IMG/VR virus record: IMGVR_UViG_3300031853_000025 | Span: 1-64,000 of that record | From: a virus | Taxonomy: Duplodnaviria; Caudoviricetes | Length of the DNA: 64,000 nt | Direction: 5' to 3' (one strand) | Part shown: positions 802 to 22,971 of the stretch, one piece after another | Layout of the letters: every line of letters begins with the position of its first letter | Position numbering within the stretch: the first letter of the stretch is position 1 | Position numbers and translations under genes: made by a program | Notes under the pieces: model-generated | What the model saw: only the letters and a program-made list of their open reading frames with translations | Database searches by the model: none | Told to the model about the DNA's origin: nothing

Positions 802-2031
802 TCAAGTATTGTCATTTTTATTTCCTTTAAATGGAAGATTATGGTTCAATACTGGATTATAGTCTAACTCGTTAAATCTTATGCTCTCAAATTGATTTAG
901 AGCTGCACTATCAAATTTATATCCTGTATCTAAAAATATTTCTTTAAATAGTTTCATTTCCATATGGCGTAATTCGCATTGATTTCGTAGTTTACTTTCT
1001 AAAGAACCTGCACAATGCTTACATGTTACCATACATTCAAAACAATGTAATGCGTGGCATGGTTTTCCTTTATACATCATACCACAGCTTGGAGGTTTAT
1101 TATAATCCGCTACGAAATTTTCCATTTTAGTTTTATCCAAGCCTTCATAGATATTACCAAAATTTGTATCTTCATCATGTACTTTAGAAATATCGTCTGA
1201 TAAAGAACACGGGAAAATTTCTCCCTGAGGATTAAAAAATAACGTAGCTCCTAGATGTCTACATGTTACCCATCTACGTCTACTTTGGAAATCCATCTTA
1301 ATATCATTATAGCACATATAAAGCATATTTTCAATATTAATTATATATTCTGCAATTTTATGCTCTCTAGCATATAAGAAAATTTTTCTAAGCTGTTCCT
1401 CAGTTTTTGAAATGAAATCATCTTCTTCAAAAACTTTCTCATCATTTATTACATAATATTCCCAGTGTTTGCAACCATTTTCAACTACGAATCTATAGTC
1501 ATCAAATAATTCATCTATAGTATCTCGTGTAGCAGCAGTTCTAATATTAATTCCTTCTCTATATTCGTTGCATAGTGTTCCTAAGTATTTTATATTTTTA
1601 TTAAAAAACTCATCATCATAAGCTTTATTTTTTACTAGTCTACTTCTTGATGCACTATGTAAACCATCCCATGAAAGATGAAAGAAATATGGTTCAATAT
1701 ATCCTTCATCCATAAGACCAATTAATTCTTTAAGTTTAGAACCATTGGTGAATACGTTATAGCAAAATTTGGTATCTTTATATCGTCTGACTTTATTAAT
1801 TTGCTTACATGCATTTCGTAATTCATCTACCGCTAAGCTAGGTTCTCCACCAGATAGCATAAATGAAACTCTTGGAGCTAACGGAAGTTTAATTAAAAAT
1901 TTATTTAACGCTTTATAATCAGTAAATTTTGTAGTTTCATTTTTTACATATTCATGCTGATAGCAATATTTACAATTTAGATTGCAAAAATTTGTCACAC
2001 GTAATCCAAGAACACTTATTTCATCATACAT
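802..2031 (-). CDS. Radical SAM/SPASM-domain enzyme C (409 aa)
   Basis: CNLNCKYC motif, SGGEP, C-terminal C...GEIFPC...CHALHCFECMVTC...C. Start reassigned to ATG 2031 behind SD GAGGAGG. Confidence 0.92.
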   Translation of the reverse strand: MYDEISVLGLRVTNFCNLNCKYCYQHEYVKNETTKFTDYKALNKFLIKLPLAPRVSFMLSGGEPSLAVDELRNACKQINKVRRYKDTKFCYNVFTNGSKLKELIGLMDEGYIEPYFFHLSWDGLHSASRSRLVKNKAYDDEFFNKNIKYLGTLCNEYREGINIRTAATRDTIDELFDDYRFVVENGCKHWEYYVINDEKVFEEDDFISKTEEQLRKIFLYAREHKIAEYIINIENMLYMCYNDIKMDFQSRRRWVTCRHLGATLFFNPQGEIFPCSLSDDISKVHDEDTNFGNIYEGLDKTKMENFVADYNKPPSCGMMYKGKPCHALHCFECMVTCKHCAGSLESKLRNQCELRHMEMKLFKEIFLDTGYKFDSAALNQFESIRFNELDYNPVLNHNLPFKGNKNDNT

Positions 2032-3334
2032 CGTCTTCCTCCTCTTTATCATCTTCTCCAGGTGTTGGAACTTCATTAACCGTCCCAAAAGGATAGACAT
2101 CAAATGTTTGAGTTTTAATTTCTCCATCTTTATACTCATTAACTTGTGCAGTTATAATACCATCAATAGAGAAATCTGGAGAGTTTTTAGTTTGTTGGTA
2201 ATCATTTTCATAATATGCCTTAAACAACTCTAAAGTTTCACTGTTATTATTAAACCAATCATCATAGTGTTTTAATGTTTTCTGAAATGATAATACGGAC
2301 GGTTCTTTGGAATTAAGTGTATTGATTATTTTTTCTTCATCACCAAGAACGAACTCTTTATCAATAATATTAATATTCGTCAATTTATCCGATGATTCTA
2401 GTAAATCAGTCATTTTTAATAAACGTCTTACACTAGCAGCATACATTTCAATCATGACTTTATCGTATACCATTAGCCCACTTAGCAATCTTCTCATATC
2501 TGATAAGCCGAGATTCGTATACTTAATAAGTAAATCAAGATATCTGCAAGCCGCATTGAAATCACGGCAAGCAAATGCCAATTCAAATTTAGTATTTAAA
2601 ATAGATACTTTAGCAATGCTGTAATCGCCATATTGAATATTGAATAAGTCTTCATCAATAGATGTAGAATTCAATGCAGTATATGCCGCATAATCAGAAG
2701 ACATTTCATCAGTCATTAATGTAATGCAATGAGCAAATACTTCAAGGTATTCATAATCAAGAATGTCTTTATCTACAATATCTTTATACTTAACTCTGCA
2801 AGAATCCAGATATTCTTTAATTGTGTTAAGATACTCTGGTGTAGATTTATCTTTAATCTTTCTACATAAAGTTTCTGTAGATGCAGTAATATATTTAAGA
2901 TGTACGTAAGAAGACATCTCTTTTAATTTATCCCATTCAATTGATTCATAATAATTTTTATAAATATTTTGGAATACTGGATACGTTCTATCATCATATG
3001 ACCAGTTGATAATATTAGACAAAATAAAGAGTCTAGTTTCTTCATCTTGTGTATAGTCATTATATAAAGCTAATAATTTCTCTTTATTATATGACACATC
3101 GGCACAAACTAATGTTTCAATCTGCATATTTTCTGGAATATATTTATCAATCATTAAATCTACTTCATCTAATATAAACCTAGTGTATTTAGTATTTAAT
3201 TTGTTTTCCCATGCTATAGCATCTACTAAAGAACTTACGCCAGTAAAAGACTCTCCGACTTTTTCAGTAATTAGTCTAAATTCATCTGAGTCTTTTACTA
3301 TTTTATATATTCTTTCTGGCAAATAATAAAGCAT
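2024..3334 (-). CDS. Alpha-helical partner protein 2 of the rSAM cluster (paralog of 5015-6196)
   Basis: 436 aa ORF, translationally coupled on both sides, alignable by eye with 5015-6196. Confidence 0.8.
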   Translation of the reverse strand: MLYYLPERIYKIVKDSDEFRLITEKVGESFTGVSSLVDAIAWENKLNTKYTRFILDEVDLMIDKYIPENMQIETLVCADVSYNKEKLLALYNDYTQDEETRLFILSNIINWSYDDRTYPVFQNIYKNYYESIEWDKLKEMSSYVHLKYITASTETLCRKIKDKSTPEYLNTIKEYLDSCRVKYKDIVDKDILDYEYLEVFAHCITLMTDEMSSDYAAYTALNSTSIDEDLFNIQYGDYSIAKVSILNTKFELAFACRDFNAACRYLDLLIKYTNLGLSDMRRLLSGLMVYDKVMIEMYAASVRRLLKMTDLLESSDKLTNINIIDKEFVLGDEEKIINTLNSKEPSVLSFQKTLKHYDDWFNNNSETLELFKAYYENDYQQTKNSPDFSIDGIITAQVNEYKDGEIKTQTFDVYPFGTVNEVPTPGEDDKEEEDDV

Positions 3335-4383
3335 TATTTCGCCCCCTTAGAGTTTATTGCAGTATATAAATTAACTTCAAAATTGTGATAGTCTTGAATG
3401 ATTTTATATAGTTTTTGGTATTCGCTAAATGTAAGCGAATCTAACCATTCAGTTATCGTTTCATAAATAATTTTAGCCATCTGACATGCAGCTTCCGTAT
3501 GCTTATACTTCCATTCATCTCCGAAGTATAAAACTCTTTCATACCGGCAGCCACCATCACATACACAGCTGTATTTACAATTCTTACAATCTTCTGATAA
3601 GCAAGGACGTTGTAGTTCTTCTTCACTAAAGTCTTTAACCTCTTGTGATAATGCGGTACAAAAACATTTTTTACCATATGGAGTAATTACTTCATATTTA
3701 CCAGCATCACAAGATGCATAATTTTTATCATTATTTAAAATAGCACTTATCCTATTTAAGTGCTCATAATATACATAATCTAAACTAAAAGTTTTTCTAT
3801 AATATTCTTTAAACTTCTTCAAATAATTTTCTGTATATACTTTTCTATGTGCAATAACAAACTCACCATGCACGTTAGGATACTTATTATGCAATTCGAC
3901 AAACGTTTTATGAATATCTGGGAAAATATCTATATTTTCATTTCCCACAACACATTTAATATCAAATACCAATCCTGTTTTAGCTGCATATAAAATATTA
4001 TCCCATACCGTTTTAGATATGGAATTACCAGAAACATCTACTCTATTCTTATCAGAAAATCCATCCCATGACAGTTGAATTTCATTGAGCGGATATTTCT
4101 TATTAAATTCTAAGAATTCTTTAAAATTAACAGATGTAGATGTAACTATTTGGAATTTAATTTTTCCATAATATTTCTTTACGGTTTCTTCTAATAAGTC
4201 TAATCGGACTAATGGCTCACCACCAAAGAAAATAATACGATCTGGTTTCTCTTCAGCAATGATTTTATCAATCTGCTCCATAGTCATAGATTTAGGATTT
4301 GCTCTACCCTTAATATAGCAATATTCACATCTATTAGGACACTGCTCTGTCAGCATTAAATATAGTTCTTTAAAACCAAACAT
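3334..4383 (-). CDS. Radical SAM/SPASM-domain enzyme B (about 349 aa)
   Basis: CPNRCEYC motif, FGGEP, C-terminal SCDAG...KCFC...CKNCKYSCVCDGGC...AC. ATG at 4383, alternative TTG at 4389. Confidence 0.92.
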   Translation of the reverse strand: MFGFKELYLMLTEQCPNRCEYCYIKGRANPKSMTMEQIDKIIAEEKPDRIIFFGGEPLVRLDLLEETVKKYYGKIKFQIVTSTSVNFKEFLEFNKKYPLNEIQLSWDGFSDKNRVDVSGNSISKTVWDNILYAAKTGLVFDIKCVVGNENIDIFPDIHKTFVELHNKYPNVHGEFVIAHRKVYTENYLKKFKEYYRKTFSLDYVYYEHLNRISAILNNDKNYASCDAGKYEVITPYGKKCFCTALSQEVKDFSEEELQRPCLSEDCKNCKYSCVCDGGCRYERVLYFGDEWKYKHTEAACQMAKIIYETITEWLDSLTFSEYQKLYKIIQDYHNFEVNLYTAINSKGAK

Positions 4384-4385
4384 AC

Positions 4386-4997
4386 TCAAATACCACAGTG
4401 CTGGTTATGACATGTGTTATGCTGACAGGATTGGCAAGCTAATTGGCAGGATTGCTGACAAGATACCTGACAACTACGAACGCACCAACCATTACCATCA
4501 AACCAACCCCAATATGTATTATTAAAATAATTAATCATAGTAATTGTATTTTGTCTGTAAATCTGCATCCAATCAGCTTTTAATTCTGGAGAAATGCGGA
4601 CATCTTGATATCTCCAAGTCTGACCAGCTGTAGAGAATGATGATCCGGCTTTAAATTCATCTTCAATATCATCAATAATACGTTTAAATGACGCATACTT
4701 AAATCCAGTTGTTTGAGCTTGACGTTCATTATCTAAAATGGTAACATCATTCCATGCAGTATTATAAGAATCAGCATCACCGACATCTTGTCTAAACCAT
4801 CTAAATGCCTGGTAACGGTTATTCCACATAGGTGGATTATCTTTAACGACATAAGCATCTCTATTTAAAGCCGACCATACGGTTTCAAAGGCTACGCTAA
4901 TTTGTCTTAATTTATTCCATAGTGTTCCATTAGCTAATTCTCCAACATTAATGCTGTCTGGGAAATTTAAATTTTTATTACCAATTCGTACTTGCAT
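4386..4997 (-). CDS. 203 aa protein with a C-terminal C-x3-C repeat (8 Cys); putative rSAM substrate 2
   Basis: Ends WFDGNGWCVRSCQVSCQQSCQLACQSCQHNTCHNQHCGI. Confidence 0.8.
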   Translation of the reverse strand: MQVRIGNKNLNFPDSINVGELANGTLWNKLRQISVAFETVWSALNRDAYVVKDNPPMWNNRYQAFRWFRQDVGDADSYNTAWNDVTILDNERQAQTTGFKYASFKRIIDDIEDEFKAGSSFSTAGQTWRYQDVRISPELKADWMQIYRQNTITMINYFNNTYWGWFDGNGWCVRSCQVSCQQSCQLACQSCQHNTCHNQHCGI

Positions 4998-5014
4998 TTT
5001 GTATAATCACCTCA

Positions 5015-6196
5015 TTATTCTAGAGTACTAATGTAGTCATTAATAACTCTTTTAGCATCTTCTATTACAGCTGTATTAGAAGACAATTCAACTAGCTCAT
5101 CTTCATGAGCTATTAACCATCGTTCAATATACTTATTATACTTGCTTAAAGTCAATTTGTCAAATGTGTAATTAAATCTAGATTTAGAAATAAAATTATC
5201 GCTATTTAAAAAGATTTCATCTGATAATTTTAGATTTACTAGTTTAAAATTTAGCTTATTTTGAAATACATTTTTCAAATGATTCAATCTAATTATGCTC
5301 GTAGCAAAAGAATAAATATTAAATTTATTATAATATCTTAATCCATTAAATAGCTGCGTTAAATCAGCCAATGCGTTATCTGTATATCTAAAAATCTTAT
5401 ATAGCATTAAGAAGAAATTATTATAGTCTTTATTATTTAAATACACTTCAGCGATTTCTTCAAATAGCCAAATAACTCCCATAGAATAGTATTTATTGTC
5501 AAAATCTAGTTTTTCTACATCTGTATCTATTGTAGTAATAATTTCTTGCATATCATCTGTAGATAATTTATTCTCTAATAGACACAAATAACTAGCTTGG
5601 ATTTCTAAGAAGTCATTATTTATTGTATCTGTGCTAACGATATAGGGTTGCAAATCAGTCTTTAATTTTTTATAGTCATCCATAAATGTATTATAATCTG
5701 CAATGCTAAACGTATGAGTCTTATTCTTTAGATAAGAATAATATAGATTATATGCATAGATTTCATAGTAAGTCACATGAATGTATTTAGGCAAGTCCGA
5801 TTTATTTTTATAATTTTCATAAATATAGCAAAACATGCTAATGTATTTATAATAGATTCCATCGTTCATACCATATGTAAGAATCTTATCAAGAATTAGA
5901 AGCTGTTCTTTTTCATTTGTTATTCCCTGAAGCATACTTGTAAGTGTTTCAAGAGAAATATCAGTCGTAGAATAATAAATAATCTTATACAAATCAAGAT
6001 TTGTTTCTTTAATCTTTTCAGTCATTTTATCAAAGTATGTTCTTACGTCTTCACGATTACGTAAATCATAGAAAATCTTTAATTCCAATTCTATTGAATC
6101 AGCGTAATAGTTATCTGATATAGTACGATAGATTTCTTGGAACTCTGGATCATCTTTCAAGTATTCATATAATTCATCAATCAAGTATAATTTCAA
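5015..6196 (-). CDS. Alpha-helical partner protein 1 of the rSAM cluster
   Basis: 393 aa ORF with an SD, colinear similarity to 2024-3334. Confidence 0.8.
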   Translation of the reverse strand: MKLYLIDELYEYLKDDPEFQEIYRTISDNYYADSIELELKIFYDLRNREDVRTYFDKMTEKIKETNLDLYKIIYYSTTDISLETLTSMLQGITNEKEQLLILDKILTYGMNDGIYYKYISMFCYIYENYKNKSDLPKYIHVTYYEIYAYNLYYSYLKNKTHTFSIADYNTFMDDYKKLKTDLQPYIVSTDTINNDFLEIQASYLCLLENKLSTDDMQEIITTIDTDVEKLDFDNKYYSMGVIWLFEEIAEVYLNNKDYNNFFLMLYKIFRYTDNALADLTQLFNGLRYYNKFNIYSFATSIIRLNHLKNVFQNKLNFKLVNLKLSDEIFLNSDNFISKSRFNYTFDKLTLSKYNKYIERWLIAHEDELVELSSNTAVIEDAKRVINDYISTLE

Positions 6197-7762
6197 TTAT
6201 ACCCACCCCCCACTATTTTGATTGTGAGCTGTGTAATACTGACAATCTTGACATGCTACCTGACAAGAACTTTGGCAAGAAACCTGACAGCTTCTTGCAC
6301 ATAAATCATTTTCATCCCAGAAATTATTCTTATTATTAAATACAGTATTGATAGCTTTTAGATTTGAAATAATATTATTAAAAAGAGATTTGCCTATAGT
6401 ATCTCCAGCAGCTAGTAGTCTAAACTGGTTAAATGAATCAATTTCATTATAATCACCATAATAGACTCCTACTGCACCATGATTAGCTTTTAATTCATAT
6501 TCAGTACCATTTTCATCTAATGTAATTTTCCCACCATCACCAACTTTAACTTCAAATTGTTGACCTGGGAAACAATCAATAATCTTAGTCACAACCTTAC
6601 CATCATCAGCAACACTTGTTCCGTATGTATTATTAATAAATCCACGGCCAACTGTGCCAAATTCATTAAAGAAAGATAAATTATGACCACTTGAAGTAAT
6701 CTCTTTTAAGATTACTTCATCTTTATCATTTTTATATTTACCGCCTTCAGCTACTACAGTGTCAAAACTGCTTTGTTCACCGTTGGCTCCATCAGGAAAA
6801 TCTTTCGTTGATTTATAACGGGTCTTATCAATATATATAGCTCCACCACCAACAACAAATACAGAAATCTTTTTAATACCACCCGGTACTGTAAAAGTGT
6901 ATGTTCCTGGCTGGGTATATACCTTATCAAACCCATATTTAGATTTATCTCCACCCTTGACATATGCGATATATACAAAACCGCCAGATGGAATTTTATT
7001 AATGTCTGTATATTTAGCTGGATTAGCTGCTTTACCAACTTTAACTGAATACCCAGTGTTTTCATTTACATTTAAGATTGCATGGATAAATTCTCCATGC
7101 TCTCCACTATTATACTCTACGTCATTATACTGAAGTGTATTTGTCTTTAACCAAGAAATACTACGTTCTGGTCTACCATAATACCCTTCAATCATTTCAT
7201 ATAAACTAAGGCTATACCCTGAGGTAAATGCTAATGCATTTTTCGTGTATTTGCCTACACCACCTGCGGCAATAACCCCTTCAAAAAATGATTCAGAACC
7301 ATCAAACTTTTCAGCTAGTCCACCACCGGCCCCACATACACCAAGAATTACACTTTTGCAACCTTTAGGGGTTACAAAAGTATAGTTTCCTGGCTGTGTA
7401 TATGCTTTAAATTCAAGATTACCAATGGTTTCATCATAACCATATAAATCAGATAATGCTTTATTCATATTAGAAATAATATAGTTAAAATCTTTAGCTA
7501 GTAATGGGTTATTAATAATAGCAGACGACTTATAACGGTCGTCTTCGCTTGTTCTTTCATATGGGTAATAACGATTTACTTTATTATCTGGATTACCATA
7601 TCCAGAAATGACTTGTTTAAATCCTTTAGCCTCTCCTAGATTTTGATTAATAGCATTTACCAATGCATCTAAGAAAGACTTCTTTACCGGAGTCACATTA
7701 TCTGTGATTTCATCCGGAATTGTATATGAGACATGTTTGCCTCGTTTAACGTTTATCGGCAT
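6197..7762 (-). CDS. 521 aa tail-fibre-like protein with two Gly-rich domains and a C-terminal C-x3-C repeat (6 Cys); putative rSAM substrate 1
   Basis: Two YTQPG(N/T)YTF(V/T)(T/V)P.G...GGG domains. Ends FWDENDLCARSCQVSCQSSCQVACQDCQYYTAHNQNSGGWV. Confidence 0.8.
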   Translation of the reverse strand: MPINVKRGKHVSYTIPDEITDNVTPVKKSFLDALVNAINQNLGEAKGFKQVISGYGNPDNKVNRYYPYERTSEDDRYKSSAIINNPLLAKDFNYIISNMNKALSDLYGYDETIGNLEFKAYTQPGNYTFVTPKGCKSVILGVCGAGGGLAEKFDGSESFFEGVIAAGGVGKYTKNALAFTSGYSLSLYEMIEGYYGRPERSISWLKTNTLQYNDVEYNSGEHGEFIHAILNVNENTGYSVKVGKAANPAKYTDINKIPSGGFVYIAYVKGGDKSKYGFDKVYTQPGTYTFTVPGGIKKISVFVVGGGAIYIDKTRYKSTKDFPDGANGEQSSFDTVVAEGGKYKNDKDEVILKEITSSGHNLSFFNEFGTVGRGFINNTYGTSVADDGKVVTKIIDCFPGQQFEVKVGDGGKITLDENGTEYELKANHGAVGVYYGDYNEIDSFNQFRLLAAGDTIGKSLFNNIISNLKAINTVFNNKNNFWDENDLCARSCQVSCQSSCQVACQDCQYYTAHNQNSGGWV

Positions 7763-9140
7763 CAGACTCGTTCCCTTCGTCTGTGAATTTAATCTTAGAA
7801 CCGATAGCAGCTGCCATAATAGCTAAAATCTTACTAAGATCTTCACTAAAATAATCTTTAAATGAAGGCAAGAGATTCCCATTCACTTCAACATTTTTTA
7901 CTAATTCGCTAAAGTGATTTAGCTTAAACATGAAATCTCTATCAAGCGGCCCAGATTCTTTCAATACATTATCGAAGTAATCTTTAATCTTAAGATTTTC
8001 AATTAGTACATTGATTTCTCTAGACCTAATATTTGTAGCTTTAAGAAGCTTTTCTCTAAACTTTTGAATTTCTTCATAATACATAATTTCCAACTTGCAA
8101 TATGCATCAGTTGGTTTAAAGAATGTATTATTAGCATAGAAATTCTGGTAAGGACAACCAGACTTACAGCTGTATTTAGCTGGGCAATCTTTACATTCTG
8201 GTTTATCAAAAGTAGCTTTCATTGATTCTTTACGAATTTTATCTACATCTACACCAGTAAAGAAGTTTCCAATCTTTAATTTCTTTAGTGCTTCATTGTC
8301 TGTAGTTGGGAAATCTGGGCATGGCCATACATCACCATTCCAATCGACGACTACCCAACGTGTACTAGCAATATTACACATTTTATCATAATCACCGTTA
8401 GGAGATAATACATTGGTTAATGCATCGTCTACTTTACGGATACTAATATTTCGCTTATTATTTTCATCATTTAGAATATCAATATACATATTTAATGTAT
8501 CACTATAAGCTTTACGTAATTCTTCTACCGCTTCGTCTGACCATTCTAAATCAGATGCGGCTACAGGGCAAATATTATTAATGCCCATATCAATAAACAT
8601 CTTTACACTATCAGCCATATACTTAGCTGTTTCAGGTGTAACAGTCATACGGACTTCAATCAAATGAGAAAGTCCACGATCAATAACCTTATGAATATTT
8701 TCCATAACGACATCAAAAGATCCACAACGATGAGCGTTGTGGGCTTCTTTATTTCCGTCAACTGACGTTAAAAGAAAAATATCATTATCATCAATATAGT
8801 CAAGCATTTCATCAGTCATCATTGTCATATTGGTCGTAATACCAATAGCAAAATCTAAATGCTCTTTATTCTTAAAATCACAAATATGTTTAATTACAGG
8901 CCAAGCTAACATTGGTTCTCCACCAAAGAGATTGACTGTAAATTTATTCTCACCATAAACTTCTTTTGGAAGCTTACGATACGTTCTACGAATAATTTCT
9001 TCAGCTGTTTCTTTAAGAATGTAGTCTTTACCCTTGTTGGTTTCAAAACAATAATCACACCTGAGATTGCAATTATTGGTAAGCAAGATAGTAACAGAAT
9101 CTACAGCTGTATATACGTCTTTAAATTGTTTAATATTCAT
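7746..9140 (-). CDS. Radical SAM/SPASM-domain enzyme A (464 aa)
   Basis: CNLRCDYC, FGGEP, SPASM C...GDVWPC...CKDCPAKYSCKSGCP...YC. Start at ATG 9140 behind SD AAAGGAG. Confidence 0.93.
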   Translation of the reverse strand: MNIKQFKDVYTAVDSVTILLTNNCNLRCDYCFETNKGKDYILKETAEEIIRRTYRKLPKEVYGENKFTVNLFGGEPMLAWPVIKHICDFKNKEHLDFAIGITTNMTMMTDEMLDYIDDNDIFLLTSVDGNKEAHNAHRCGSFDVVMENIHKVIDRGLSHLIEVRMTVTPETAKYMADSVKMFIDMGINNICPVAASDLEWSDEAVEELRKAYSDTLNMYIDILNDENNKRNISIRKVDDALTNVLSPNGDYDKMCNIASTRWVVVDWNGDVWPCPDFPTTDNEALKKLKIGNFFTGVDVDKIRKESMKATFDKPECKDCPAKYSCKSGCPYQNFYANNTFFKPTDAYCKLEIMYYEEIQKFREKLLKATNIRSREINVLIENLKIKDYFDNVLKESGPLDRDFMFKLNHFSELVKNVEVNGNLLPSFKDYFSEDLSKILAIMAAAIGSKIKFTDEGNESDADKR

Positions 9141-9163
9141 TTTTAACGCTCCTTTGAAAAATT

Positions 9164-9775
9164 TTATCGTAGGGCAGCACCAGTATATTGCCAAGCATTA
9201 TTAACCCAAAATTTTACATAAAGCGCATTGGTATCAAACCAAATTTCTTTCTTTTCTTTTGGACTGCTTGGGGCAGATGGCCCAATAGTAATACGAATTC
9301 CACCAACTGTAACAGAATCACCTGCTCTAGTTGCATAATCCGCATTATTAGCGTGAGTTGCATTTGTAGCATTATCAGCATTAACTGCATGGTTAGAATT
9401 GTTTGCTGTATCTGAATATGCAATTGCTGATGGTAGATCTTTAAGATCATTATAAGAACCTGAGAAAGCAACTTTTTTCAGTGTAGCTTTCCAGTTATTA
9501 AAATCTGATGTTAGTAAGCGTTGAGCGATAAGATCCATGATAGTCTTACCAGCATCTTCGTAGTTACCAACGATCGCTTTAAATCGTTTATCAGTGTAAG
9601 TATTTGATTTCTGCTCTACAGAGTTCCAATAAGTACGTTCTGCGGCAGTAATGTGAATATTATTATTAGAAATATGCTTATTAAAATCATCATTATTTAC
9701 TTTCCGATTTAACATGTCTTGTAGACTTGGTGCTAATTCAGCATAAGTAACTTTGTTTTCTTTATTAAAAGCCAT
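9164..9775 (-). CDS. Short tail-fibre-like virion protein, first gene of the rSAM operon
   Basis: Shares the N-terminal ELAPSL...HISNNNIHITAAERTYWN motif with neighbouring fibre genes. Also has NA(D/T)xA repeats and a GPSAPS..EIWFDT tip. Confidence 0.7.
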   Translation of the reverse strand: MAFNKENKVTYAELAPSLQDMLNRKVNNDDFNKHISNNNIHITAAERTYWNSVEQKSNTYTDKRFKAIVGNYEDAGKTIMDLIAQRLLTSDFNNWKATLKKVAFSGSYNDLKDLPSAIAYSDTANNSNHAVNADNATNATHANNADYATRAGDSVTVGGIRITIGPSAPSSPKEKKEIWFDTNALYVKFWVNNAWQYTGAALR

Positions 9776-9809
9776 AACTTTTTAACCTCCTATTAGATAT
9801 AAATGGATT

Positions 9810-9821
9810 TATATGATTGTT
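9810..9821 (-). promoter_or_regulatory. Late-type promoter AACA-N6-TA driving the fibre/rSAM operon
   Basis: AACA atcata TA upstream of SD AGGAGG of 9775. Confidence 0.65.
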
Positions 9822-9889
9822 CTTGGGGTTAAAAAGATCTTAGCGAACTTATAATTAAATTAATTGTTTATATTGAGGTGATAAATAAT

Positions 9890-11116
9890 ATGAAACGCAT
9901 GGGTAAATTAATTACAAATAAAACCGATGTAGATTATATTCTTAGCATTGATGAAAAGATCGGTACTAAGAAATCTACTATTATGGAATTATTCGGAGAA
10001 TTTAATGGTAAAAGAAGATTTAATACATATGATATGATTGATGTTCCCCCTGGAGCATATGGCCCCGAAGGTAGAAAAAATAAAAACAAATTTAGAACGA
10101 CTATTGGTATCTGGATTTTCAATAGAGTATTTATCGAAAGAGAATTATTCGATATGTATCACTATGTAAATAAAACCATTACCAAGAAAGTATTTAATAA
10201 GATTGCTAAAGAGATTACTTTTAAAGTGCTTGAAAATAAGTATCCTCTGGATGCATTGAAACACTATATGCTTAAATGCCAGAAGTTTATGCCTTACGTA
10301 ACTATTCTATCTGAAACGACTACAATGAAATTATTAACTATTACTCAAAAAGTCGAAGTCGAAAAAGCTAAACTCTTAAAGAAATATGAAAAAGAAGTTA
10401 AAGCTAAAGACCCATATGTAATTATTAAAATTCAAAATGAATTACTTAAAATGGCCGAGGACGAATTAAAAGATGATCCATCTATGGATATTTATCGTTC
10501 TGGTGCTAAAGAAAAACTTAACAACGACTTCAAGAATATGTATATCATGAAAGGTCTTACTAAAAACCCTGACCCAACTAAGGGTTACAACTTAATTACC
10601 TCTAGCTATATGACTGGTATTAAAAAAGAAGAATATGCTGATTTTGCTAACTCACTAGCCGAAGGCCCTTACGCTCGTGGTATTAAAACTGGTTTAGGTG
10701 GTTACTGGGAAAAATTAGCTTTACCAGCATATCAGCATATTAAAATGCTTCCTAAGGGAAGTGATTGCCATACAAAAAGACATATTAAAATTAAGCTAAC
10801 TAATGATAATTATGATAAATACATTTATAGCTTTGCTAAAGTTGGTTCTAAGTATGTAGAATTGACTAGTGAAAATAAATCAGATTTTATTGGCAAGGAA
10901 GTGCAATTACGTTTTTCTTCTCTATGTGAAGCAAAAGACGGTATTTGTAATATGTGCGGCGGTAATGCTTTTTATCGTCTTAGTATTACAAATATTGGTG
11001 CAGCCATTCCACAGGTTCCTGCAAAACTTAAATTAATTTCAATGAAAGCTTTCCATGATTCTCAGGTCGTAATGGAAACCATGGATCCAATGAAAGCTTT
11101 TGGATTTGATGATTAA
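9890..11116 (+). CDS. Phage multisubunit RNA polymerase beta' subunit, C-terminal part (408 aa)
   Basis: SGAKEK..MKGLTKNPD, bridge helix ARGIKTGLGGY, GSDCHT, Zn site LRFSSLCEAKDGICNMCGG and trigger loop ISMKAFHD align with bacterial RpoC. The GTG at 9878 is part of the SD GAGGTG. Confidence 0.9.
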   Translation: MKRMGKLITNKTDVDYILSIDEKIGTKKSTIMELFGEFNGKRRFNTYDMIDVPPGAYGPEGRKNKNKFRTTIGIWIFNRVFIERELFDMYHYVNKTITKKVFNKIAKEITFKVLENKYPLDALKHYMLKCQKFMPYVTILSETTTMKLLTITQKVEVEKAKLLKKYEKEVKAKDPYVIIKIQNELLKMAEDELKDDPSMDIYRSGAKEKLNNDFKNMYIMKGLTKNPDPTKGYNLITSSYMTGIKKEEYADFANSLAEGPYARGIKTGLGGYWEKLALPAYQHIKMLPKGSDCHTKRHIKIKLTNDNYDKYIYSFAKVGSKYVELTSENKSDFIGKEVQLRFSSLCEAKDGICNMCGGNAFYRLSITNIGAAIPQVPAKLKLISMKAFHDSQVVMETMDPMKAFGFDD

Positions 11117-11130
11117 AGGAGGTATTTATC

Positions 11131-12795
11131 TTGGGAGAAATCCATAAAAATTATCAAGTGCCAGATAAAATATCTTCTGATAAAGATGGTAATATTGAAG
11201 TTGGACGAATTATAACATGGAGGGATCCCGGTGATCCAGGTAATTTAGTTCCATCAAATCCTAGACATCCAGATGATAAAAAATATCCTAATGACCAACA
11301 TAATCGAGGTCATTCAACAGGAGATATGACATCAGATAATACAGATGAAAAATATACAAATAACTATGGTGAATCTGGTGTTGTATTAGGTGATAAGATT
11401 AATCATAATGCTGAAAAGTATAGACCGATTAATTTCGATAATTTAGTTCCAATTAAAATTACTACCACACAACAACAAAAAATGTTTAAGAATCTTTGTA
11501 TTCCATCAGCTATGCACGCATATTCTGTTGGGGTAGAATTCTTTAAACAATGGATATTAAATAAATTTGATCCAAAGTATTTTAAAACTGTCTATGTAGA
11601 TGGTAAACACCTATTCGATGATTTTTCTAAAATCAATGAATTAGATTTAGTCAAGAAAGGTAAACCAGCTATTGGATTCTTTCCTAATATTGATATTGAT
11701 TACAACCGTGAAGGCATTGAAGCACAAACATATGACTTAATGTATTACGCTAGAACGTTTGACAATAGAGATGCTTTCTTTAAAGATAATGAAAATAAAC
11801 TATATATCTCTATTGCCTTAGAGCAATATTTAATGAATTTCAATATTAAGATTAAAGTAGATACGAGAGCTAAGCAATTAGACTTAGCTAAGTATCTTAG
11901 AATTGCCCTTAAAGTTGGTGCGACAAGTGGGTATTATCTTGATTTAGATTTACATGTACCATATGAAATGCTATTTGCCTTAGCTGAGCAAGCTGGCTTT
12001 GAAGTAGACTATGAAACTGGTCAAGTTAAAGATCCATTTAAATTCTTATTATATTTGAATAGTAAATCAGACGTACCATTTGTATATAAATTACGCTCGA
12101 TCAATGGGATGAATGAATTCTTCTTACGAGCGCCAAATCTATATACACATATCAATGTACAAGATATGAGTATCGACGATGGTGAAAGACAAAATCAAGT
12201 TTCATCAAACTATTTTATTGAATTGAATGCTAAACTATTAATGCCTGCTCCTAAGATGTATTGCCTGTTTACTACAAAGAGAAACGATATTATTTCTATG
12301 ATAGATAAATCAGGGAATATCAAATCTTATGTGGCTAACTTTACAAATGTACCGACTTTGAACAATCGTGGATGGGAACAGTTTGTAACTCTAGATTACC
12401 AAGAGGAAGATAGAACTCGTCCATTAGTTATTGATTTAAATGAAATCTTCCAAGGTGAAAATAATATATATAGTCTTATCGAGTATAATAAATACAATAT
12501 GATTAGTCCATCTACATTTATTGATTTCAAATTATTCAATAATAATAAAGAATGGGACTATGATTTAGACTGGGATAATATGATTATTAAAACTAAGAAA
12601 CCAGTAGATTTTCAGCTAACTGAGATTGTAATATACATTGATAAAAATTATGTAAATACACAAACGATTACTATGAGCAATGATAGTAATTATAGAGTCA
12701 CGTATAACAAGACAGCTGGTAATAATACTAATGAATCTTTCCGTAGCCAAGAAAAAATGAAACGACTCCGTTTAGGCTTATTTCACAAAAAATAA
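11131..12795 (+). CDS. Hypothetical 554 aa protein, probably structural
   Basis: TTG start behind SD AAGGAGG, long clean ORF, no recognised motif. Confidence 0.6.
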   Translation: MGEIHKNYQVPDKISSDKDGNIEVGRIITWRDPGDPGNLVPSNPRHPDDKKYPNDQHNRGHSTGDMTSDNTDEKYTNNYGESGVVLGDKINHNAEKYRPINFDNLVPIKITTTQQQKMFKNLCIPSAMHAYSVGVEFFKQWILNKFDPKYFKTVYVDGKHLFDDFSKINELDLVKKGKPAIGFFPNIDIDYNREGIEAQTYDLMYYARTFDNRDAFFKDNENKLYISIALEQYLMNFNIKIKVDTRAKQLDLAKYLRIALKVGATSGYYLDLDLHVPYEMLFALAEQAGFEVDYETGQVKDPFKFLLYLNSKSDVPFVYKLRSINGMNEFFLRAPNLYTHINVQDMSIDDGERQNQVSSNYFIELNAKLLMPAPKMYCLFTTKRNDIISMIDKSGNIKSYVANFTNVPTLNNRGWEQFVTLDYQEEDRTRPLVIDLNEIFQGENNIYSLIEYNKYNMISPSTFIDFKLFNNNKEWDYDLDWDNMIIKTKKPVDFQLTEIVIYIDKNYVNTQTITMSNDSNYRVTYNKTAGNNTNESFRSQEKMKRLRLGLFHKK

Positions 12796-13549: not shown

Positions 13550-15121
13550 TTAATCATAATAGACCAAAGTATAATCAAATGGGATATGACCTGTACCAGT
13601 ACAATATACAGTAACTGTCTTGTTAGTTTTAATACACCAAATATCACCGACTGTACCATTTGGATTTGCCGTAGGAATTACAGATACGGAGAATGAGGTG
13701 TTTTCAAACTCGTGTTCAATGATAGTCCCGTTAGTCCCATTAAAGAAACCTGTACCAGTAACGATAGCATTTTTATTCTTTTTGTTTTCCAAGGCAATTC
13801 GTTCTTTATCTGTAAAGAAACGATTGTTTGGATCTTGAGTAATAATAGATGCCGGTAAATGATCTGGTAGCTTATAATTATTAGCCCCATCTTCAATAGC
13901 ATCTAATTTAGCTTTATCTTCTTTAGACATGTAGCCATTAACTTTAGATGTGGCTGGAACTGTGTCTAATTTAGAATTCCACCGCATCTTTTCTACATCT
14001 GATACAAAGCGGTTATACGCATCTTGTCGAATAATGCTAGGTTCATGATAAAGTGGATGTTCATAATAGTTAGCATTAGCTTGTACAGTATTGAGTTTGA
14101 TTTTATCATAATGACTCATCAAACCATCTAGTGTTTCATTAGCTAAGTTATTATTCGCTTTATTACCCCAGAGTCTAATCTGGTTATCTGTTACAAAGCG
14201 ATTCTTTTCATCTTGTGCAATAATAGATGGAGGAAGATGATCTGGTAAAGTAAAGTTAGTTGCGCCCTCTTCAATACCATCTAGTTTATACTTATCTTCT
14301 TTAGACATCAAACCAGAATACTGGTAAGTTACAAGTCTATCTTCTGCTTTGGCATTCCAATATGCTTTTTCTTTATCCGTTACGTGACGAATAGAAGAAG
14401 TATTTGGATGCACATAATGGTTAGCTTTTTTTTCAATTCCATCTAGCTTAGTTTTGTCTTGATGAGACATTTTACCATCTAATTCATGTGTAGCCATAGG
14501 AATTGAGTTTGCTGAAATAGGAATCCAGTTTTCTCCATCAAAACGATATACAATACCAGTATCGTTTACTGATACAGTCCAACCCTTTTGAGGAGATGGA
14601 TATCTAATAACGATGTCATCAAATCTTTCAACGTTTTCTTTCCAAGTATTATCATATTCTAATTGAGAGAATTTATTATTGATTTCTTCTTTAGAATATG
14701 TATTATTCCATTTGGTTCTATCAGCAGTGGAAACATGCAATGCTGTATTAGAAACGTGTTTATTAAAAACGCTATAGTTAGCATTAATAAGAGCTAAAGC
14801 CCCTTCTTGGTCAATCTTATTATCCCATGTTTCACGTTCTTTTTGAGAAATATGGATCTCAATATTATTTACATGGTCTTTTAAGATTTTATCATTTTTA
14901 AGAATACATCCTTTTTCTGCTGAATTAAGGTGGATGTTTTGGTTAACTAAGTGAGTTAAAACTGCATTATTATTAGCCATTACCTGCTTTAAGTTTAATG
15001 CATTAATCCCACTGTCTTTAGATACAGTCCCTGAATCATCATTAAATACTAAGATATTCCCTGGGGTGGCTGTACCTAAAACGTTATTGTTAATCTTGTC
15101 TAGCAATTTAGGTTTAGCCAT
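13550..15121 (-). CDS. Tail fibre protein with 4 GLMS.EDK.KLD repeats
   Basis: H..N..IH..E...W repeats and G(L/K/Y)MS..DK.KLD.IE.GAN.Y.LP repeats shared with 25178-30214. Confidence 0.75.
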   Translation of the reverse strand: MAKPKLLDKINNNVLGTATPGNILVFNDDSGTVSKDSGINALNLKQVMANNNAVLTHLVNQNIHLNSAEKGCILKNDKILKDHVNNIEIHISQKERETWDNKIDQEGALALINANYSVFNKHVSNTALHVSTADRTKWNNTYSKEEINNKFSQLEYDNTWKENVERFDDIVIRYPSPQKGWTVSVNDTGIVYRFDGENWIPISANSIPMATHELDGKMSHQDKTKLDGIEKKANHYVHPNTSSIRHVTDKEKAYWNAKAEDRLVTYQYSGLMSKEDKYKLDGIEEGATNFTLPDHLPPSIIAQDEKNRFVTDNQIRLWGNKANNNLANETLDGLMSHYDKIKLNTVQANANYYEHPLYHEPSIIRQDAYNRFVSDVEKMRWNSKLDTVPATSKVNGYMSKEDKAKLDAIEDGANNYKLPDHLPASIITQDPNNRFFTDKERIALENKKNKNAIVTGTGFFNGTNGTIIEHEFENTSFSVSVIPTANPNGTVGDIWCIKTNKTVTVYCTGTGHIPFDYTLVYYD

Positions 15122-15902
15122 AAAAAATATTATCCTCCTTTCGGGTAATGTCTTGCTGTTTCATAAAGCTAGATACTTGTAGAGCATAAGAAGCTTCTTC
15201 TGCTAATTTAATTAAAGTATCTATTTTTTCTTGCTTTGTTTTCTCATCAATATTTTGAAATTCAGCCATTAAGAAACCAATAGGTGGTTCTTCAAGTTCA
15301 GACTTATCTAAAATAGCAATAGCTATATAAGAATTAAGTGTGTCATCTTGGTTTAATAATAGCTTATCTACAATATTTAAGTCTTTAGCACTTTTAGTTG
15401 AAATAAAAATGCTGTTATGAAATAAATCACTAAGAAAATCATCTACGGCATTGATGGGGATATTTACTTGCTGTGGTTGTTTTAAAATAGTATTTGAGTG
15501 TGGTTTAAGAATCTCACAAATGCAACTCATCTTAATAAAAGGAAATCCGCTTAAGCTGTAGGTACCATTATGAAAAAGATAAATTGCAATCCGTTCAGCA
15601 TCTACCTCTTCGCAGGCTTTCTTTAGATCTGTTTTCAATAAAGTATTTAGTTTCACGTAAAGCTTAACTAATTGATTTGGTTTCTCTTCAATTTTCCTCT
15701 CAGCCTCCTGGCTTTGGTGTGTAACTTCGGCTGCAATTCGTTTATGAATAAATTCATCTTTATCTAAAAATTTTAAGAAAACTCTTAGGCTAAGAAGAAT
15801 AATTGCAAGAGAAAAGAAAACAGCCAAAAGCAAGAAGATTGCGAGTTCAAAAAATGGATCATTGGAGAGAATTAATTTAAAAAACTCTAAAATTGTTTCC
15901 AT
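15114..15902 (-). CDS. Single-TM protein with a GAF-like soluble domain (T4 gpT-like holin candidate)
   Basis: Hydrophobic helix at about aa 17-43, then AERIAIYLFHNG...PIGFLMAEF GAF-like pattern. Confidence 0.45.
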   Translation of the reverse strand: METILEFFKLILSNDPFFELAIFLLLAVFFSLAIILLSLRVFLKFLDKDEFIHKRIAAEVTHQSQEAERKIEEKPNQLVKLYVKLNTLLKTDLKKACEEVDAERIAIYLFHNGTYSLSGFPFIKMSCICEILKPHSNTILKQPQQVNIPINAVDDFLSDLFHNSIFISTKSAKDLNIVDKLLLNQDDTLNSYIAIAILDKSELEEPPIGFLMAEFQNIDEKTKQEKIDTLIKLAEEASYALQVSSFMKQQDITRKEDNIFYG

Positions 15903-15940
15903 TCTTTACCTCTTCTTTTAATTAAATTATATTACAAACT

Positions 15941-15952
15941 TAATTAAATGTT
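15941..15952 (-). promoter_or_regulatory. Late-type promoter AACA-N6-TA
   Basis: AACA tttaat TA upstream of 15902. Confidence 0.65.
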
Positions 15953-15984
15953 TTGTGAGGGGCTAGCGAGCTATGTTCTTTGTT

Positions 15985-17973
15985 TTATTTTTTACTAACC
16001 TGAATATTGTAGCTATCACCGTAAGTATTACCATAAATAAACTGTGTCTCTAAATTAGTATTTTCTCTAGGATGTAATTGATAGCGCAAATAATCTATAA
16101 ATAATTTTTCTTGTTCAGTTGGGAACGTTGGATTTAAAGTTATATTAATACCGCTACTAACAGCTTTATTTTTAATACTAATAACTGGTCTTTCTTTTAA
16201 AGTAATTATATTACCTTCTTCATCTTCTTCGGTGTCTTTATCATCAGCAAACTCCTTATATTCGTCACCAATATCTACGTCTTCGGTGACGAACGGTTCA
16301 CAGCAAAGCTTGTTAAGAAACTCTTCATTCTTTGAAATATTAAATGGATAATTGATGGCACTAATACCAGATAAATCTGTAAATTCTACTTTGATATCAC
16401 TAAAGATAAATGAATATAAAGAGTATGGTGTATCTAAGAAATCAACTACACCAGTCTTCCAATGAGACATATCTAAAATAATTCTTTTAAGATAAAGATG
16501 ATTTGCTACATATTCTCCTAAAGATTCATATCCATAAATAATTTTCTTATTGAATACATCAATAGCATATGAAGACAAATCTAATTTATTATTAATTGTT
16601 TTTGCTTTATATATTTTATCAGGGAAAGTTTCTTCTAATTTACAAGCCTTAATAATGAAATTAGTATACACTTGTCTTGGTCTAAACTCATTACCAACTG
16701 GTACACTATTGCTAGGCTTTAGTGTAACAAATCCATTTAAATTTACTTTATCATCAGAAGAAAATACTATAGCTGATTTACTAGCTTTAATATTCTTATA
16801 TGTAATTCCATTCGATAATGCTTCATCACGACCTGGATGAATTGTAGGCATCTTAGATGTGGTGGTGTTTGTGCTACCAGTTTTAAAATTACCATACGTC
16901 AAATTATTCGTTTTAGTATAATCATAAAATGCTTGAATATTGCCTTGGAGGTGTTTAACGGTAAAATTCTTAGTTTTACCGACATCTCCTAAAGTGTTTG
17001 TATACAATGGTTCGCCAAAGAATGCTGGAACACGGAAAGTATTTACTCCATCACCAGAAGAAAATAACCCAGCTGCAATATTATAGTTAGTATTATTTAG
17101 CTTATTCTTATATAAGGTCTTCCATTTATCATCAGAAACAACTAACCCTTGGGTTTGTGCGTATTCCCATAATTCAGGTAAGTCTTTTCTAAAATATAAT
17201 GATCCATCTAATGATACCCAACCCTTTGGGGGGCGTTTGCTCATACACATAGCAATTTCACCGACAGGCTGTTCAAATGATGAATCATCTGGAATATATT
17301 TAGATGGAATAAACCCATCTTTATCTAGCTTGACTGTATTATTACCACCAATCAATACCCACTCTTTACCATCAAAGAAGTAAGCATTATCAGTGTCAGT
17401 ATTAATATAGATTTTATTTGTTTCATCAGTAGAAATGATTTCTGAATTTCCTAAAGTATACGCTTTATCTAAGGTTTTATTCATTAAATATTCTAGACTA
17501 GCAGTTGATCTATCAGTCATTGTTAGATATGATGCATTAATCATTGGCTTCTTAGGGAAATTAGTCCCATCCACATATAAGAACCCTGAAGATTGAGTCT
17601 TATTCAACGTCATAGCATTATTAACTTTAGCTGTAATTTTAGCTGGATTATTAGCATAATTGACATGACCATATTCATCAAAATGCACTTCTAAATATTT
17701 GCCAGGAACCATATTTCCTGTGGGGTGAATATATTTATTTGCATTTTCATCAATAGCTGCTAATTTCTCTCTAGCTGATTGTGAGAAGAATGAACTTCCT
17801 AAACCAGCATATTCTGGAATTGTCTTAGAGTTATTATTCCATCTTTCTCTATCAGCTTGAGTAATATGTCTATCTTTATCTTTAGTGTGAGTGTAAATAT
17901 TATCAATCGTATTTGAAAATTCTTTAATAAACTCATGCTTAGTAAGTTTATCTTTATTATTATCGAATGCCAA
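15985..17973 (-). CDS. Tail fibre protein with a phage tail-collar domain
   Basis: PVGEI...PKGWVSLDGS...DLPELW...GDGVNTFRVP. Confidence 0.8.
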   Translation of the reverse strand: MAFDNNKDKLTKHEFIKEFSNTIDNIYTHTKDKDRHITQADRERWNNNSKTIPEYAGLGSSFFSQSAREKLAAIDENANKYIHPTGNMVPGKYLEVHFDEYGHVNYANNPAKITAKVNNAMTLNKTQSSGFLYVDGTNFPKKPMINASYLTMTDRSTASLEYLMNKTLDKAYTLGNSEIISTDETNKIYINTDTDNAYFFDGKEWVLIGGNNTVKLDKDGFIPSKYIPDDSSFEQPVGEIAMCMSKRPPKGWVSLDGSLYFRKDLPELWEYAQTQGLVVSDDKWKTLYKNKLNNTNYNIAAGLFSSGDGVNTFRVPAFFGEPLYTNTLGDVGKTKNFTVKHLQGNIQAFYDYTKTNNLTYGNFKTGSTNTTTSKMPTIHPGRDEALSNGITYKNIKASKSAIVFSSDDKVNLNGFVTLKPSNSVPVGNEFRPRQVYTNFIIKACKLEETFPDKIYKAKTINNKLDLSSYAIDVFNKKIIYGYESLGEYVANHLYLKRIILDMSHWKTGVVDFLDTPYSLYSFIFSDIKVEFTDLSGISAINYPFNISKNEEFLNKLCCEPFVTEDVDIGDEYKEFADDKDTEEDEEGNIITLKERPVISIKNKAVSSGINITLNPTFPTEQEKLFIDYLRYQLHPRENTNLETQFIYGNTYGDSYNIQVSKK

Positions 17974-17982
17974 TTAATTCAC

Positions 17983-19464: not shown

Positions 19465-19479
19465 AATAATTAACCTCCG

Positions 19480-21891: not shown

Positions 21892-21903
21892 TTATATCAC
21901 CTC

Positions 21904-22971
21904 TTATTTTTCTTCAGTTAAAGCCACTGAATATTTTTTGCCACCGCTTAAGAGTTTAAGTTTTCCATCTTCTACATAAAGCTCAAAGTCTTTTGCTTTA
22001 AGATGGTTATTAGATACAGAAACTCCATTGGGGTCATCAGAATCAATAATTTTAATAGCTGGGTTCCATGTCTTATCTCCACTACGGAAATACATATCAT
22101 TTCCAATAAAAATAAATTCATAAGATGTTCCATCATCTGTAGCACGCATACCAAATACAGTTGCATACGTTTGATCAGCATGACGTTTTAAGATATCATC
22201 GCTTAATTGTAAAGACGATAGCTCTTTATAACCATAGAATTTAAAAAATGAAGCATAGTCACTTGGAATAGTATTTACATCTAATTTTTCATTTAATGCT
22301 AACTGAAAATAAGATGCTTCAGTAAATACTGAGTTCCATTTCTTCTTTTCGTCATAAGCACTTAATACATTTTTTGGGCCAATCCAAAAAAGATTCTTTA
22401 AATACGCTTTATTATTATCTGGTTCTTCTTCTGATTTAGTATATGGATGCATATGGTTTAGATAGTAGCTGATATTAATAGCTTCCGTTTCCATAGCATT
22501 ATCAGTTGGGGTTGGAATATTTACTTTGCCTAAGAATACGGGGTTTGCTAGTGTAGCATATTCTGCTGCTGCTTTATTACCTAGCTTATCTGCATTAGAT
22601 ACAGTAATATCTAAATGTGATGGGTTATAACCAGCAGTAACGTGTCCATATTTATTAACGTCGACTACAAGGAAGTTCCCACCGTTTTCACCTAGCTTAT
22701 TATAAGTCGGATGAATATAATTATTTGCGTGCTCTTCAATACCATCTAATTTGACTTTATCTCTCCAAGACATCATACCCTTTTTAGAATGGGTTGCTTC
22801 TGGATAGTCTAAAATTAAATTCCAATTTCTTCGTTCTTCTGCGGTAATATGTCGTACATTATCTGAAATATGAGCATAAGCCTGATTGATCTTTTGTTTT
22901 AAAGATAAAGATAATTCATGCAGAGTTAGTTTATCTATCTCTGGATTATAAACCGGTTTAGAATCTGGCAT
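21904..22971 (-). CDS. Tail fibre protein (shared N-terminal module, no collar domain)
   Basis: KLTLHELSLSL...HISDNVRHITAEERRNWN...GMMSWRDKVKLDGIEEHANNYIHP. Confidence 0.75.
   Translation of the reverse strand: MPDSKPVYNPEIDKLTLHELSLSLKQKINQAYAHISDNVRHITAEERRNWNLILDYPEATHSKKGMMSWRDKVKLDGIEEHANNYIHPTYNKLGENGGNFLVVDVNKYGHVTAGYNPSHLDITVSNADKLGNKAAAEYATLANPVFLGKVNIPTPTDNAMETEAINISYYLNHMHPYTKSEEEPDNNKAYLKNLFWIGPKNVLSAYDEKKKWNSVFTEASYFQLALNEKLDVNTIPSDYASFFKFYGYKELSSLQLSDDILKRHADQTYATVFGMRATDDGTSYEFIFIGNDMYFRSGDKTWNPAIKIIDSDDPNGVSVSNNHLKAKDFELYVEDGKLKLLSGGKKYSVALTEEK

Follow-up and report, generated by a model that had tools for sequence, protein, structure and literature searches.

Two proteins with a common cysteine-rich tail

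Why should two phage proteins that differ in most of their sequence end in the same cysteine-rich tail, with their genes lying among those of three radical S-adenosylmethionine (rSAM) enzymes? The question is raised by IMG/VR virus record IMGVR_UViG_3300031853_000025, a 73 kb record with an estimated completeness of about 30%, of which positions 1 to 64,000 were analyzed (hereafter, the window). The two tailed proteins are referred to here as Sub1 and Sub2, the enzymes as rSAM-A, rSAM-B, and rSAM-C, and two further proteins of the same gene string as Hel1 and Hel2. The answer that we consider probable, with real room for doubt, is that the enzymes install thioether staples on phage surface-type proteins by way of this tail module.

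Both open reading frames (ORFs) were real and located on the minus strand, at 4386-4997 for Sub2 (203 aa) and at 6197-7762 for Sub1 (521 aa). The original prediction, made from the letters of this DNA, had described a shared C-terminal tail, which BLASTP aligned with 26 of 43 identical residues (60%, E 5e-15), and the translations agreed with it on the number of tail cysteines (eight in Sub2 and six in Sub1) and on an I..(F/V)FNN helix ahead of both tails. The two YTQPGxYTF..P.G...GGG motifs that it had noticed in Sub1 were found at residues 120-148 and 281-308, the second of them matching the Pfam family Gly_rich_2 (E 8.5e-6, 26.4 bits, cut-off 24.3) and also PHROG minor-tail families, with the Gly_rich_2 and minor-tail matches spanning only about 25-50 residues of Sub1. 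The statement that the remainder of the two proteins is dissimilar held for the pair, all non-tail segments of Sub1 and Sub2 aligning at E > 1 in BLASTP, but the first ~110 residues of Sub1, a beta-hairpin with helices, recur in many short family members; judged from sequence, a large subset of the family has a common N-domain besides the common tail.

In Sub1 and its 81%-identical relatives, Ala and Ser replace the last two cysteines of the family (window 6200-6260), and the terminal CH.Q.C part is thus dispensable in the Sub1 clade. The 572 aa orthologue of Sub1 (L055:1649-3367), encoded on a contig binned with a Solobacterium metagenome-assembled genome (MAG), retains all eight cysteines and shows the same rSAM-A, Sub1, Hel gene order. 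For Sub2, an AlphaFold2 model built on a 70-sequence alignment reached a predicted local distance difference test (pLDDT) score of 80.8 and a predicted template modeling score of 0.78, and contained an N-terminal beta-hairpin and several helices, including, at residues 141-161 with a pLDDT of 84-94, the helix that the original prediction took for a possible internal leader. Searches of the PDB with this fold returned generic helical bundles only (Foldseek E > 0.8; VIA Z at most 8.7), so that no fold was assigned to Sub2. Its top structural match in BFVD was A0A8S5UTL8, a protein of 200 aa from the uncultured myovirus 'Myoviridae sp. ctYA416' that bears the automatic name 'Six-cysteine peptide SCIFF', from which it follows that databases label members of this family by a weak SCIFF match, without any study. 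The second-best BFVD match was A0A8S5UTN6, a 464 aa neighbor from the same phage.

The module ends many unrelated proteins

A search of 1.84 billion representative proteins with a profile hidden Markov model (HMM) built from 15 tails returned 146 cluster representatives at E <= 1e-3, 95 of them at <= 1e-10. In about 120 of the 146, which are proteins of 71-950 aa, the module forms the extreme C-terminus, and no peptide of ~45 residues was present among the matches. The protein bodies fell into 21 BLAST components, eight of which had two or more members; the tail thus ends proteins with unrelated bodies, which bears out the suggestion that it is a portable module. Scanning for a DNA pattern of four CQ pairs led to true tails at the C-termini of ORFs of 136-442 aa, with 18 tail ORFs on 16 viral contigs, many of them 206-287 kb long. 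The raw scan also caught many unrelated CAG/TGC-rich simple repeats.

The module comprises ~60 residues, namely an amphipathic helix, the motif W-[WF]-D-x-N-G, and the ladder C-x3-CQ-x2-CQ-x2-CQ-x2-CQ-x-C, usually followed by x4-C-H-[ND]-Q-x-C-G, 1-4 further residues, and the stop codon. Its spacing was fixed in 102 unique cores from other sequences, in which the first six cysteines and His26 were invariant (102/102) and Gln followed the four cysteines in 97, 100, 89, and 99 cores, respectively, its main replacements being Met and Glu. The helix upstream of the core is conserved and shows a 4-3-4 hydrophobic pattern; no GG-type cleavage motif was found upstream of the core in family members, and the profile had no relative among solved structures. 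Some proteins depart from this plan. Five of 740-911 aa (P0156, P0158, P0164, P0165, and P0168) end in a shortened ladder with three cysteines, W-F-D-x-D-G-Y-C-Q-R-S-C-Q-I-N-C-Q-T-x-V-Q-K-S-stop, apparently a short version of the module in its own right. In P0036, P0047, P0100, and P0159, extra CQxx, CExx, or CMxx units precede the canonical core, so the repeat number can expand. P0022, a 115 aa protein from a 602-base contig, joins a helix-turn-helix N-terminus (PF12844/PF01381) to a tail identical to that of Sub2 and, given so short a contig, probably arose by chimeric assembly and not by real fusion.

In the longer members, the domains found in mid-protein were Gly_rich_2, F5/8 type C (discoidin), CBM5/12, NedA-like galactose-binding, and PHROG tail-protein domains, some members carrying the tail-protein domain of PHROG 17517. 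Domains of the tail-fiber type, which had been read from Sub1, therefore do occur in module-bearing bodies according to Pfam and PHROG, together with sugar-binding ones.

Tails and radical-SAM enzymes occur together

In 18 of 19 loci, the tail gene has orthologues of rSAM-A, rSAM-B, and rSAM-C on its flanks, joined in some loci by a fourth enzyme; in the exception (L048), the tail gene lies at the contig edge and the upstream side is not covered. The Hel family, followed with an iterated HMM, is present in one or two copies in tail loci with enough flanking sequence. The association was also seen from the side of the enzyme. A profile of rSAM-A had 223 relatives in IMG/VR, and wherever a viral locus held an rSAM-A orthologue of at least 31% identity (17 of 17 loci), a CQ-ladder ORF followed immediately downstream, along with rSAM-B and usually rSAM-C and Hel. 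The tail is in this way tied to the radical-SAM enzymes, as had been expected; tails commonly standing without rSAM neighbors, a situation that the original prediction had named as fatal to it, were looked for, and the two counts are the opposite of it. These loci were reached with the DNA pattern and the rSAM-A profile, the same search with a Sub1 alignment or a single rSAM-A sequence yielding nothing.

Among 185,579 species genomes, the DNA pattern had only three matches, each on a MAG contig that also bears the same cassette and that is 283 kb long in one case, and the tail family is essentially confined to phages. In GenBank phages, megablast and tblastn gave no match to the operon, Sub1, or Sub2, and rSAM-A had relatives of at most 27% identity only; as all of these are uncultured, no cultured phage with the cassette was found there. 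The genes beside the cassette differ between phages, those of other jumbo phages being thymidylate synthase and NAD-dependent DNA ligase (L010:3195-3869, 9663-11597) or an endolysin (L044:9985-10596), which marks the cassette as a self-contained mobile module that moves as a unit. No protease or exporter was conserved in the cassette across the tail loci examined.

On other viral contigs (L075-L135), more distant SPASM enzymes with 22-29% identity to rSAM-A adjoin full-size Cys-repeat proteins of other kinds. These partner proteins contain CxxC repeats, C[EQ]xxC[EQ] ladders in 240-790 aa proteins, CxCNNxCYG repeats, or CVCDCNY repeats after a QYNAxR helix, and include a recurrent 310 aa 'MPMCDFCTE...' protein. 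The pairing of SPASM enzymes with Cys-repeat proteins in phages is much wider than the CQ-ladder family.

Three SPASM enzymes and their helical partners

By reciprocal scores, rSAM-A, rSAM-B, and rSAM-C form three separate orthogroups. Each combines the CxxxCxxC motif with the seven-Cys motif of SPASM radical-SAM enzymes, the Pfam SPASM match being above the cut-off in rSAM-A, weak in rSAM-C, and absent in rSAM-B. Three plus seven cysteines, i.e., all seven SPASM cysteines among them, were invariant in 21 orthologues of rSAM-A. In rSAM-B, CxxxCxxC starts at residue 17 and about seven C-terminal cysteines were conserved in 18 orthologues, while CxxxCxxC and most of seven C-terminal cysteines were conserved in 20 orthologues of rSAM-C; conservation of the C-terminal cysteines in these two enzymes was 0.75-1.0. 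Since CxxxCxxC lies only 17-52 residues into the listed ORF in all three enzymes, none of them has room for a RiPP recognition element (RRE), RiPP denoting peptides that are made by ribosomes and modified after translation.

The best NCBIfam model for all three was PapB (NF047865), with 200 bits for rSAM-A, 59 for rSAM-B, and 82 for rSAM-C, none of which reached the cut-off of 340. In rSAM-A, it was followed by ScfB-related models, QhpD (114 bits), and anSME (81 bits), all far below their equivalog cut-offs. The closest solved structure to rSAM-A was CteB (5WGG, E 4.5e-22), aligned from CteB residue 93 on, i.e., without the RRE, and anSME was also among its solved relatives (E 1.7e-13). Hel1 and Hel2 are paralogous (23% identity, E 9e-14), and no Pfam, PDB-sequence, or Atlas assignment was obtained for Hel.

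Proposed cross-linking of the tails and alternative explanations

We propose that the tail module would be the substrate of rSAM-A, rSAM-B, and rSAM-C. Working as in ranthipeptide and protein ranthionine systems, the enzymes would take a hydrogen from a side chain and bond a Cys sulfur to a carbon in a residue close by. The most likely acceptor would be the Gln after each Cys, because the Cys-Gln pairs are near-invariant and their substitutes include Met and Glu, which, like Asp and Asn, are proven acceptors elsewhere. Two ring topologies may be considered. In the first, Q-x-x-C (i, i+3) staples would run along the predicted helix, echoing the NxxC ranthipeptide; in the second, C-to-Q links (i to i+5) would echo the Cys32-Thr37 link first reported for CteA and would leave the last four cysteines (C-x2-C-x4-C-x4-C) as a possible metal knuckle. 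With no RRE present, substrate recognition would probably depend on the conserved helix and aromatic motif and/or on Hel. The tail would thereby become a protease-resistant element with multiple non-reducible staples, in a setting where stiffening by disulfides may not be reliable, namely the phage of an anaerobe. The carriers are probably virion-surface or adhesin-type proteins, as suggested by the tail-type and sugar-binding inserts and by the tail-fiber neighborhood in the window. The more specific idea that the tail forms a rigid 'tip' was not supported as stated.

Several points weigh against this proposal. The modification chemistry is drawn only from enzyme kinship and synteny, the acceptor residue and the ring pattern are guesses, and the need for three enzymes is unexplained. 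Invariant Cys and His residues are equally expected of a metal site, and the last four cysteines are spaced as in a zinc knuckle. Sub1 of the window itself does without the last two cysteines, making that part dispensable, and the cassette in other phages adjoins non-tail genes, so a virion location is only putative. As for structure, the Sub2 ladder was predicted to be helical at residues 174-189 with only moderate confidence (pLDDT 66-76), and the AlphaFold model of Sub1 was poor (pLDDT 50) and was not used.

The first alternative starts from the same residues. If the six invariant cysteines and the one invariant His, with the C-x2-C-x4-C-x4-C end resembling a zinc knuckle, formed a structural metal or Fe-S site, the tails would undergo no covalent change and the rSAM enzymes would act on something else. 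We consider this unlikely in view of the reciprocal, near-perfect linkage with three orthogroups of SPASM maturases, whose genes overlap those of the tailed proteins, and of a cassette with no other conserved Cys-rich candidate substrate. Metal ligation does not explain the near-invariant Gln after four cysteines, and two of the four 'knuckle' cysteines are missing from Sub1 and its close relatives.

An equally small share of belief goes to the idea that the full-size proteins are giant leaders from which a core of ~35 residues is released as a ranthipeptide signal or toxin. The resemblance of the core to SCIFF, the source of products with a part in the quorum sensing of clostridia (PMC8326336), speaks for it, as does the constant position of the module at the extreme C-terminus; however, the cassette has no conserved protease or exporter, no GG-type cleavage motif precedes the core, and variable bodies with tail-type and carbohydrate-binding domains would be odd for a leader. 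The pLDDT of the upstream helix in the Sub2 model likewise favors a folded element over a free leader.

Less probable again is an oligomerization or folding element, comparable to a foldon or a C-terminal fiber chaperone, with the enzymes assisting it or being unrelated to it. A conserved C-terminus combined with a variable middle is typical of fiber chaperone domains, and the 4-3-4 pattern of the upstream helix would fit, but the invariant Cys-Gln pairs and the dedicated enzyme triad would be left unexplained. Finally, low-complexity chance or a recent DNA repeat is next to inconceivable, for although the motif is short and periodic and the raw DNA scan did catch CAG/TGC-rich repeats, chance was rejected by the pairwise E-value, the profile search with its more than 100 diverged homologues bearing the fixed spacing and flanking motifs, and the spacing of the 102 cores, and a DNA-repeat origin of the ladder by the lack of a tandem repeat and by differences between the two tails at synonymous sites.

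Comparison with known systems

Thioether stapling of the phage tails would resemble several known systems. The original prediction had likened the tail to a SCIFF core. The resemblance is real but marginal, as Sub1 matched the Pfam family PF13165 with an E-value of 0.033 and 14.5 bits (cut-off 27) and TIGR03973 with 13 bits (cut-off 50), Sub2 did not match, and weak SCIFF matches occurred in 4 of 15 tails and 4 of 70 members; by the curated Pfam and NCBIfam models, the tail is not SCIFF. SCIFF is a free peptide of ~45 residues with six cysteines, and here the carriers have 203 and 521 aa, the family 71-950 aa, and the consensus eight cysteines. TIGR03973 had no match in the three MAGs or in control genomes. 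On the enzyme side, rSAM-A scored 115.5 bits against a cut-off of 425 for the ScfB/CteB model (TIGR03974), aligning from model position 82, with the RRE absent.

With the SCIFF/ranthipeptide systems (CteA-CteB, Tte1186a, and PapA-PapB, which makes freyrasin), the phage system shares a C-terminal CxxxC-Q ladder ending in N-Q-x-C and SPASM radical-SAM maturases and, by analogy, would be expected to share the Cys-to-side-chain thioether (PMC8326336). In contrast, the phage substrate is the end of a protein of 71-950 aa instead of a ~45 aa peptide and has eight cysteines with four invariant CQ pairs, and the system is phage-encoded, has three maturases and a helical partner in place of one maturase, and lacks an RRE in all of its enzymes.

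The CXXX-repeat system (TIGR04117/TIGR04115) has cysteines at every fourth residue and a predicted radical-SAM target. The TIGR04117 family is bacterial, and the target system is, to our knowledge, a bioinformatic prediction only. TIGR04117 was the curated family matched by most members (13 of 70), with a best E-value of 0.0013 and no match in the window proteins, and rSAM-A reached 98 bits against 350 for TIGR04115; the TIGR04117 match is of the same weak order as the SCIFF match.

Protein substrates have been described for other enzymes of this class. CrpC of Methanococcus voltae installs several ranthionine links in the Cys-rich C-terminal region of the protein CrpA, including at a CAGM (Met) motif, with Met and Asp as acceptors; a paralogous partner protein raised the extent of modification, and CrpB may help (Dieter et al. 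2026, PMC13692751). The paper makes no mention of phages (PMC13692751). The phage and CrpA-CrpC systems are alike in having a SPASM enzyme, multiple cross-links (proposed ones in the phage), a Cys-rich C-terminal region of a real protein, and possibly a second protein, and differ in that CrpC has an RRE, is a single enzyme, has another repeat motif, and is archaeal and cellular; rSAM-A scored 66.6 bits against 525 for the CrpC family (TIGR04463). In the thioethers made by SPASM ranthisynthases, the partner of the Cys sulfur is Asn, Thr, Asp, or Glu, bonded at its beta or gamma carbon, and QhpD performs such Cys linkage inside a protein subunit (PMC8326336). QhpD, acting on QhpC to make Cys-Asp and Cys-Glu thioethers, and anSME are radical SAM/SPASM enzymes with protein substrates and clear relatives of rSAM-A. 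They differ in their substrates, in the use of an RRE and a leader by QhpD and the formation of formylglycine by anSME, and in that neither is viral.

Gene organization and phage setting

The cassette is a compact run of genes on the minus strand from 9775 to 802, in the order 203 aa tail-like protein, rSAM-A, Sub1, Hel1, Sub2, rSAM-B, Hel2, and rSAM-C (Table 1). Several adjoining genes, Sub2/rSAM-B and rSAM-A/Sub1 among them, share a few bases, which suggests translational coupling. The listed TTG start of rSAM-A at 9194 is probably too far upstream, the alignment of orthologues favoring the ATG at 9140. The same probably applies to the listed ATG of rSAM-C at 2139: starting at an in-frame ATG near 2031-2052, the gene would lose most of its 116-base overlap with Hel2. 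A scan for sigma-70 promoters gave results at chance level only.

The DNA of the window is AT-rich. Blocks of tail-fiber genes occupy 13550-22971 and 25178-30214, with tail-fiber genes located just upstream of the cassette, and a PHROG match identified a gene for a phiKZ-type RNA polymerase beta subunit. The ORF at 50266-51402 is a fragment that matches the middle of the anaerobic ribonucleotide reductase NrdD (E 2.4e-60), consistent with an anaerobic host. The RNA polymerase gene, the tail-fiber block, and the NrdD fragment together point to a jumbo phage of an anaerobe.

Table 1. Features of the cassette, with positions in the window and the evidence for each
Feature	Position	Strand	Evidence
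Tail-fiber-like protein, 203 aa, first in the gene string	9164..9775	-	Weak PHROG tail-protein matches; orthologues directly upstream of rSAM-A in L029 and L054
rSAM-A, radical SAM/SPASM enzyme, no N-terminal RRE	7746..9194	-	Pfam Radical_SAM and SPASM; NCBIfam; CteB 5WGG
Sub1, 521 aa: N-domain, two Gly-rich motifs, C-terminal Cys tail	6197..7762	-	ORF, Pfam, PHROG; 572 aa L055 orthologue
Sub1 tail module: helix, FWDEND, 6-Cys CQ ladder, without the last two consensus Cys	6200..6391	-	Translation, family core statistics, L055 orthologue
Hel1, 393 aa alpha-helical orphan partner protein	5015..6196	-	Hel2 paralogue; iterated HMM
Sub2, 203 aa: beta-hairpin, helices, C-terminal Cys tail	4386..4997	-	AlphaFold2, BFVD
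Sub2 tail module: helix, WGWFDGNG, 8-Cys CQ ladder, terminal CH.Q.CG	4389..4577	-	Translation and profile search
rSAM-B, radical SAM/SPASM enzyme, start overlaps Sub2 stop	3334..4389	-	Pfam Radical_SAM E 4e-18; PHROG 1802
Hel2, 436 aa helical partner, Hel1 paralogue	2024..3334	-	BLAST against Hel1; iterated HMM
rSAM-C, radical SAM/SPASM enzyme	802..2139	-	Pfam Radical_SAM and weak SPASM match; NCBIfam PapB 82 bits

Implications

Radical-SAM enzymes are known to cross-link Cys-rich peptides through thioethers and, as shown lately, proteins too; the protein-substrate precedents (QhpC; CrpA, 2026) are experimental, none of them in viruses. In the published literature, we found no paper on phage systems that pair Cys tails with rSAM enzymes, and no description of a phage setting, of a fixed CQ module with eight cysteines on proteins of full size, of the RRE-less triad, or of the Hel partner. 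A wider proposal, which we find plausible if a little short of probable, is that phages of anaerobes encode multi-enzyme radical-SAM machinery that staples virion surface proteins with thioether ladders as a redox-proof substitute for disulfides; this would be the first such cross-linking of virus structural proteins, with the CQ triad as one family among the phage pairings of SPASM enzymes and Cys-repeat proteins. In a bolder variant, the SCIFF-like stapled tail would mimic a ranthipeptide signal of the host and act as a ligand for a host surface receptor.

If the proposal is true, RiPP-type radical chemistry would reach beyond small secreted peptides to virion proteins, and the 'orphan' SPASM enzymes in many anaerobe phages would be explained. 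The module and its enzymes would constitute a portable tag of ~60 residues with a defined enzyme set for placing multiple non-reducible staples on arbitrary proteins, and the tails would be natural substrates for working out fully modified SCIFF-like ladders, a question still open for SCIFF (PMC8326336). The finding would also be relevant to the stability of phages and their recognition of hosts in the gut or rumen.

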